Positions 12,735 through 13,350 of a DNA stretch of 64,000 bases are shown piece by piece. Position 1 is the stretch's first letter, and each line of letters opens with the position of its first letter. This stretch comes from Eledone cirrhosa (Eukaryota): positions 12,896,001 through 12,960,000 of the forward strand of contig OZ024754.1 of the NCBI GenBank assembly GCA_964016885.1. Direction: 5' to 3'. Below the pieces are notes generated by a model that did no database searches, had not been told where the DNA came from, and saw only the letters and a program-made list of their open reading frames with translations. A program made the translations under genes and the position numbers.

Positions 12735-13350
12735 TGTACATTTTTAACTTAATTGTTTAAGCGTCAGTCATACAAAAGTGAGTTACAAACGAAACGAAAT
12801 TTAATTTCGTTTCGTTATTTGTTTTTATCGTCTCCGTTGAACCGGTACGTACTCACGCTCTATGCAAATTAGTCTGCCCACTACTAATTTTCATAGAAAA
12901 AGCATATAACGATATGTGCTTTTACGATTCTCTAGAAAGGCCGGAAGATAGGTAAATATTGCTGATGAGTTGTAACAACAACGAAACTAGTTCAATATTC
13001 CTTGTCTGGCTTTCTGTAGAATAGAGGAAAGGTGTTTCCTCAAAAACCAGTATGACTCTAAAAACCGGTTTGTCTGTGTGTTTACATACAGAATAGCTGG
13101 ACACTCACAGTAAAGTGACCAGTGAAGAACTCGGTACATCTACATATGTATACGTGTGTGTATTCATATGCATACTAGTATTTCAGTATACATATGTGGA
13201 TGTACATTTTTAACTTAATTGTTTAAGCGTCAGTCATACAAAAGTGAGTTACAAACGAAACGAAATTTAATTTCGTTTCGTTATTTGTTTTTATCGTCTC
13301 CGTTGAACCGGTACGTACTCACGCTCTATGCAAATTAGTCTGCCCACTAC
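12735..13350 (+). mobile_element. Retrozyme-like non-coding tandem element, 466-bp monomer (1.3 copies) with one HHR
   Basis: 12735-12884 is repeated at 13201-13350. It contains the octamer ATGCAAAT (12862, 13328), the hairpin AACGAAACGAAAT/ATTTCGTTTCGTT and an HHR at 12955-12999. Homologous to 60770-61306. Confidence 0.75.
12955..12999 (+). ncRNA. Minimal type I hammerhead ribozyme, canonical core
   Basis: AATATTG-CTGATGA-GTTGT-AACA-ACAAC-GAAA-CTAG-TT-CAATATT. Confidence 0.9.

Follow-up and report, generated by a model that had tools for sequence, protein, structure and literature searches.

Promoters coupled to hammerhead ribozymes have precedents in newt satellite 2, whose promoter contains an octamer and a PSE, and in the SINE-like Sm-alpha and Sj-alpha repeats of Schistosoma, whose Pol III promoter is internal and tRNA-like. 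In newt satellite 2, hammerhead repeats stand in tandem and are transcribed by Pol II from an internal snRNA-type promoter (PMC2220036, PMC6765202), and in the schistosome repeats the promoter precedes the hammerhead, being lost in single copies and kept in tandem ones (PMC6765202). Metazoan non-LTR retrozymes (Cervera and de la Pena 2020, PMC7229834; PMC7761336) are described as tandem AT-rich repeats that lack ORFs, measure a few hundred bp per unit, are highly structured and bear a type I hammerhead; they co-occur with Penelope-like elements (PLEs) and give rise to circular RNA. According to PMC7761336 they seem to be promoter-less. Read-through transcription is the current assumption of the field. 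PLEs, for their part, are marked by head-to-head copies, a tail at one end and microsatellite targets (Craig et al., 10.1101/2021.04.23.441226), and partial tandems and inverted 5'-truncated copies are described for PLEs and their non-autonomous partners (also Li et al. 2026, 10.64898/2026.07.22.740005). In the latter work PLE dependence is argued from co-occurrence and pseudo-LTR (pLTR) similarity, and the words 'promoter' and 'octamer' are absent from its main text. A literature search, thin on subscription journals, returned no octamer or U6-type promoter in invertebrate retrozymes.

Here, we describe two hammerhead repeat families, A and B, from a 64,000-nt stretch of the Eledone cirrhosa genome (hereafter the window; G000:C14:12896001-12960000 in our searches, which cover the 3.0-Gb assembly). 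They resemble the published metazoan retrozymes in all the structural traits listed above, and PLEs with their partners in partial tandems, inverted 5'-truncated copies, one-end tails and microsatellite targets. They differ from the retrozymes in carrying a host-type promoter motif, in that PLE mobilisation is read from insertion anatomy and chimeras rather than from co-occurrence, and in being known from genome sequence alone, whereas circular RNA has been demonstrated for the published ones. In contrast to newt satellite 2, the genome is of invertebrate type and the motif is specific to host type-3 Pol III genes, stands at -77 with a TATA box, and recurs in at least eight families with two spacings; unlike the schistosome promoter, it corresponds to an external U6-type element. 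We consider it fairly probable that A and B combine a built-in snRNA-type promoter ahead of the ribozyme with a likely circular RNA and likely reverse transcription by a PLE.

Anatomy and abundance of the two families

The copies of families A and B in the window, and a third relative, comprise the following features.

12735..13200, plus strand: family A monomer, 466 bp
12785..12828, plus: A hairpin and T-rich end signal
12828 (unit position 94): main fixed 3' end of A insertions, the other being 12754-12759 (unit positions 20-25)
12861..12872, plus: A upstream element TATGCAAATTAG, 24.3 bits, identical to the host type-3 Pol III element and also the 5' strand of a hairpin
12903..12910, plus: weak TATA-like box of A, CATATAAC, 41 nt after the octamer ATG
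12955..12999, plus: A type I hammerhead with a short palindromic stem III (ACTAGT); extended stem about 12937-13015
After 12992, plus: predicted A cleavage site
13201..13350, plus: partial second A unit, identical to 12735-12884, with 2-nt microhomology at its join to the PLE-2 piece
13327..13338, plus: second copy of the upstream element, cut off before its TATA box
15866..16486, plus: third relative, family F, with its core at 16196 and a decayed octamer, interrupted by another short repeat
60759..61200, minus: family B monomer with a short 3' overrun into (TA)n
60976..61018, minus: B hammerhead, cleavage predicted after 60982; stem II of this copy is mismatched
61082..61093, minus: B upstream element TATGCAAATTGG, 16.0 bits, followed by TCAG at +16 and a TATA-like box at +42 (about 61050-61044)
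61204..61306, plus: B piece in inverted orientation, 5'-truncated, with its 3' end at unit position 72, a fixed end

A 150-bp repeat that is 100% identical (12735-12884 and 13201-13350) sets the A period at 466 bp, and the window copy amounts to 1.32 units with one hammerhead. The first-pass annotation, made from the letters of the window, had recognised this unit on the plus strand; what it had read as a single minus-strand stretch at 60770-61306 consists of the B unit on the minus strand and the truncated B piece on the plus strand, which together create a 178-bp inverted repeat. Alignment bears out its proposal of collinearity between A and B, which holds from the end signal up to and including the ribozyme, and the stem I pairings that it named (AATATTG/CAATATT in A, ACGTTG/CAGCGT in B) are present, as are the predicted A cleavage site and the lack of coding capacity, the longest ATG ORFs of the A and B monomers being 50 and 53 aa. 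The distance from the octamer ATG to the ribozyme core is 100 nt in A and 80 nt in B. In Rfam, the A ribozyme matches HH9 over 12944-13015 with 37.7 bits (E 2.7e-8), short of the gathering score of 52; the B ribozyme has no Rfam hammerhead match and was identified by motif only (core, stem I and ACTAGT). In stem II of the B copy, TAACT replaces the TAGCT of most listed copies and introduces an A.C mismatch; the closing pair is U.U, which recalls axolotl HHR_Amex2 as described in PMC7229834. The monomers are highly self-paired, with a circular-fold z of about -8 against 25 shuffles. With one ribozyme each, neither window copy could yield a monomer in cis, and both are probably dead ends. Contigs of unspecified kind from sequence run X1 show loose (TA)n ends at 12759 and 12828, as in the assembly, and single variants predominate in those of runs X5 and X6; neither has a bearing on expression.

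Several octamer-like repeats lie upstream in family F. Elsewhere in the window, a 406-bp tandem repeat (six copies, 23574-26005) and two adjacent 28-bp minisatellites (50151-52875) showed no hammerhead core in the scan. Rfam microRNA matches in the window were set aside as artefacts of (TA)n and inverted repeats.

The core pattern shared by the two hammerheads has 39,161 matches genome-wide, against none for the reversed control pattern, an abundance far beyond chance, and 28,103 of these 39,161 cores have ATGSWAATKRG 62-92 nt upstream. Copies of A, 97-100% identical, occur as tandem and inverted arrays spread over many contigs, and B units of about 420 bp are likewise tandem and dispersed; one long homogeneous array has about 30 units (C1:5738327-5752305). 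The genome-wide copy search that the annotation had proposed thus returned many dispersed, ORF-free arrays, and its view of tandem hammerhead monomers of retrozyme type holds. By their sequence, A and B are classed as two young non-LTR retrozyme families. Units within an A array are more alike (mean difference 0.7-5.6, depending on the array) than units of different arrays (12.8), as would follow from repeated copying of a single template but also from local amplification. A metagenome scan gave at least 118 single matches, one of which passes a loose hammerhead filter; it is unconvincing, and the matches are treated as chance.

The upstream element and the small-RNA promoters of the host

The genome's own small-RNA genes were collected as a reference. 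The octamer, TATGCAAATKRG, corresponds to a host motif, TATG(C/G)(A/T)AAT(T/G)AG, that lies at -76 to -79 in seven loci, each of which also has a TATA box at -30/-31. They are three of U6, the top U6atac match, the two best tRNA-Sec matches and the only MRP gene; the U6atac, MRP and tRNA-Sec loci were inspected only after the idea had formed. In these type-3 Pol III loci (L103, L104, L105, L155, L161, L269, L270) an octamer-like element near -77 takes the place of a vertebrate-like PSE. This element has no trace in the 110 nt upstream of nine U1, six U2, eight U5, three SRP and one RNase P loci, nor does it precede 14 other U6 matches, one U6 copy with an inserted repeat, five other U6atac and four weaker tRNA matches, which we take, from score and context, to be pseudogenes or other tRNAs. 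Upstream of U1, U2 and U5, AATTA is followed by TCAGT at about -56 and, 25-28 nt further on, by a TATA-like box. The single RNase P RNA gene (L162, G000:C24:12936134) has a U1/U2-like upstream region with TCAGT, a distal element of 22 bits and no U6-type element, hinting at Pol II transcription. Two further loci, L196 and L197, have a distal element, an octamer-like element and a TATA box with no Rfam family downstream, and may be novel Pol III genes or chance.

A matrix made from the seven Pol III loci selects the octamer site in both A (24.3 bits) and B (16.0 bits), on a scale where host loci reach 12.6-27.8 bits in leave-one-out scoring and none of 1000 nulls attains the A or B score. Identity between A and B is 11/13 in the octamer and 7/8 in the TATA box, against 57%, 57% and 51% in the flanks, so that the octamer is indeed conserved above its surroundings (51-57%), a point that the first-pass annotation had singled out for checking. 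The octamer-dependent promoter that it had envisaged is sustained insofar as the motif is a promoter-like host motif; in this genome it is not a distal enhancer of the kind known from vertebrate snRNA genes, but belongs to the TATA-containing layout of type-3 Pol III genes. The 10-mer shared by A and B was rejected as a proof of conservation by itself (P=0.31 for some shared 10-mer anywhere), and it gains meaning from where it lies, from the collinearity of the two units and from its agreement with host promoters. A PSE-like block directly after the B ribozyme, TGTCAGTG, was dropped, not being conserved in A.

Searching for the element together with the core brought 2,134 more matches (control 5), among them families C-F, in which a TATA-like box occurs at +42/43 though absent from the query (D being mixed). 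A query for the element plus TATA at U6 spacing, with no ribozyme included, gave 690 matches (control 67); the first 30 represent 26 distinct sites, 13 of them assigned by eye to older families G and H, and four of these G/H sites have an intact core at +105 to +108, though the ribozyme had not been asked for. As the motif served to find C-H, its conservation in these families is in part built in, and A-B and C-H share ancestry, so that they are not independent captures. The octamer-to-TATA offset is 41 in A (27/27, weak box), 42 in B (63/71), 43 in C (19/27), E (5/5) and F (4/4), 47 in G (8/12) and 48 in H; the host value of 46-48 is matched by G and H only, A-F being 4-6 bp short. Between A and B this distance is constant within 1 nt, and the interval from TATA to ribozyme carries a 21-nt indel. 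Across families the TATA-to-core distance ranges from 38 to about 60 nt, so that a start 30 nt past the TATA box always leaves stem I in the transcript; the predicted start lies 8-30 nt upstream of the core, at about 12933-12935 in A.

Several features count against a promoter reading: the weak TATA box of A (3.4 bits, against 10.6-13.3 in the host), the short spacing in A-F, the overlap of the element with a hairpin, low scores with the host Pol II matrix (A -9.5 and B 3.2, against 19.7-35.1 in the host; A-F low overall) and the lack of a distal element in A, B and C, although this element is likewise weak or absent in host U6atac, MRP and tRNA-Sec. TCAG does occur 26-27 nt before TATA in B, E and F, but the full Pol II matrix score is low.

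The weak TATA box of A and the departure from host spacing would be accommodated if the same PLE-mobilised retrozymes kept the octamer as an RNA hairpin strand or an RNA-protein signal, perhaps as the relic of an ancestral U6-type promoter, and obtained their RNA by read-through, in line with the promoter-less state ascribed to metazoan retrozymes (PMC7761336). The octamer does pair with an inverted partner in A and B (predicted hairpin z of -5.2 and -2.4, respectively), it folds into some hairpin in every family examined, and the monomers are strongly structured. However, the partner strand differs from family to family while the octamer strand is constant, a TATA-like box keeps a fixed distance in families retrieved by a query that did not include it, and the octamer is the host type-3 element, found in G and H at the exact U6 spacing. 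We therefore regard this structural role of the octamer as rather improbable.

If the motif is a promoter, the polymerase has to be considered. The exact Pol III (U6) spacing of 47-48 bp in G and H, together with the confinement of the element to type-3 Pol III loci in the host, would suit the view that A and B, despite their short spacing, are served by a true type-3 Pol III promoter, from which most transcripts would end at T5/T6 about 280-300 nt downstream and rare read-through would give monomers. Runs of T4 or longer are absent from +62 to +344 in A and up to +370 in B; yet such T-free zones have P=0.13 (A) and 0.30 (B), and were rejected as a Pol III signature. Moreover, with A/B spacing 4-6 bp short, every monomer would require read-through of T5-T6, and family G has a T5-6 run directly after the ribozyme. 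This Pol III reading of A and B is unlikely in our judgement, if less so than the structural one. Given a spacing of 41-43 bp and T5-T6 runs inside the unit, Pol II snRNA-type initiation appears somewhat likelier than Pol III for A-F. In human U6, only a 2-nt deletion is described as tolerated in that spacing (PMC11696126), a source in which spacing is also argued not to determine the choice of polymerase.

Hammerheads without the octamer were found as well. A structure-based scan of the retrieved loci gave 187 distinct hammerheads (null 0 per Mb), and its octamer-less clusters include several that resemble PLE 3' ends and a tandem family, I, with a 310-bp unit. Families I and J (L118:4446-5996, L195:227-1620; L080:2601, L069 at 2847 on the minus strand) are both tandem and octamer-less, have elements spaced as in U1/U2, with a weak score, and together account for 16,548 pattern matches (control 2). 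Family I has a 20-bit match to the distal element, nearly perfect with respect to the host, after the ribozyme and about 256 nt before its predicted start; as a Pol II matrix match it was rejected, its spacing being U1/U2-like but its score, 4.1 bits, being reached by 40 of 200 nulls. The existence of this abundant octamer-less family counts against a need for an octamer promoter.

Insertion ends and the Penelope link

The A copy adjoins Penelope-like ORF fragments of two different families on its two sides, a Penelope-type, chimeric setting that the first-pass annotation had overlooked.

10485..12734, minus strand: PLE-1, Penelope-like and 5'-truncated, with RT, a frameshifted GIY-YIG and a 3' end in (TA)n; head-to-head with A
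13351..13900, plus: 3' end of PLE-2, with the endonuclease C-terminus and its own minimal hammerhead core at 13712, ending in (TA)n

This PLE-A-PLE composite has (TA)n at both borders and 2-nt microhomology at its right junction. PLE-1 is identified by an Atlas match to HTH_animal/RVT_1 clusters and by what we take to be RT and GIY-YIG motifs; Pfam gave no relevant match for two PLE-1 frames. A head-to-head pair of PLE-2 at 39281-41720 carries minimal hammerheads at 39478 (minus) and 41464 (plus), and its two ends are arranged as described below for A and B, with a tail of about 60 nt. Hammerhead-like cores at 15411-15837, 30504-30512, 32092 and 44244 of the window, some as inverted pairs in (TA)n, probably mark the 3' ends of additional PLE families.

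Ends were mapped in 28 A loci and 29 B loci. The 3' ends of A fall at unit positions 17-25 or 93-95 in 36 of 39 cases, and those of B at 13-20 or 66-72 in 40 of 46, giving two fixed 3' ends about 60-70 nt apart, whose outer members run mostly into (TA)n. The 5' ends are scattered, with no pile-up within 10 nt of the cleavage site (A 0/43, B 2/44). Fixed internal 3' ends with scattered 5' ends indicate internal priming on a template that may be a circle or an uncleaved multimer, the data being compatible with either. The insertions thus display the anatomy of PLEs, with an inverted head-to-head copy, a tail and a microsatellite target, the tail being about 60-70 nt against the 30-40 described for PLEs (Craig et al.; Li et al. 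2026).

A PLE protein match was present in 19 of 218 loci searched, which overlap and include some that are not retrozyme loci. Among nine PLE-hit loci mapped further, L231 (family E) and L190 (family B) contain head-to-head junctions to PLE coding sequence, and in most of the others (TA)n separates retrozyme and PLE; with the window, such junctions with PLE ORFs are known in three families. The chimeras are probably template switches by the PLE RT, or could stem from nested insertions followed by deletion. At L159:1300-1630, a full-length U6atac retrocopy stands head-to-head with a piece of family F, with (CA)n/(TA)n ends, possibly a PLE-made chimera.

A 3' end shared with an autonomous PLE would be expected of a non-autonomous partner; A and B have no similarity to the 3' ends of the two PLE families of the window, to which the comparison was limited. 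No retrozyme was seen as the same-strand 3' end of a PLE ORF among the 19 PLE-hit loci, part of which were read in detail, and the octamer occurs in 0/18 members of the pLTR-like hammerhead family. Judged from these arrangements, A and B are not pseudo-LTRs of the window's PLEs, since their arrays are ORF-free and their junctions are chimeric or (TA)n-separated; the annotation's distinction from ordinary pseudo-LTRs is upheld. The same observations bear on the idea of a satellite-like origin, in which A and B would derive from Penelope pseudo-LTRs and have multiplied by local DNA amplification with no circular RNA stage. A pLTR origin with local tandem amplification is proposed in 10.64898/2026.07.22.740005, and long homogeneous arrays such as the 30-unit one would suit it; nevertheless, the copies are dispersed on many contigs, their fixed ends and inversions are typical of fresh insertions, and neither the window's PLE 3' ends, nor the PLE-hit loci, nor the pLTR-like family provides a source. 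We consider this origin very improbable.

A possible cycle and its meaning

The DNA anatomy and the identity of the motif are directly established, whereas transcription, cleavage and circles are predicted. On the best reading of the sequence, A and B have captured an external promoter of snRNA type, which could be kept through retrotransposition because the template is tandem or circular. The upstream element and the TATA-like box would set the start of transcription some 30 nt past the TATA box and 8-30 nt ahead of the core. The transcript would then read through to the next unit, where two hammerheads with palindromic stem III, of the short kind described for PLE hammerheads (PMC6765202), would cleave, probably as a dimer, and release a unit-length RNA to be circularised by a host ligase. 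A Penelope RT/GIY-YIG protein, as the genome anatomy suggests, would cut (TA)n, prime at a fixed site inside the unit, 34-37 nt upstream of the octamer, and copy for more than one round, thereby rebuilding the external promoter before the ribozyme, which an ordinary linear retroposon would lose. The products are visible in the DNA as head-to-head arrays with two fixed ends and occasional chimeras with Penelope ORF pieces.

In a wider and tentative extension, which is doubtful as it stands, more than 55,000 PLE-mobilised ribozyme circles would carry both kinds of host snRNA promoter (U6-type in G/H, a shortened hybrid in A-F, and U1/U2-type with a distal element in family I), kept by rolling-circle reverse transcription, with the polymerase switched in evolution.

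Given the promoter-plus-hammerhead precedents of newt satellite 2 and the schistosome repeats, the candidate novelty is a host U6-type promoter in retrozymes. The high expression of animal retrozymes, which in review appear promoter-less, and the identity of their mobiliser are two open points that become directly testable through defined handles: the element with its TATA box, the predicted start, and physical retrozyme-Penelope chimeras with Penelope insertion anatomy. As a by-product, the animal's U6-type promoter layout may be useful for small-RNA expression tools, and the genome may hold some 28,000 additional sites for the factor that binds there. If true, the cycle would show a retroelement that retains an upstream promoter, which is impossible for SINEs.
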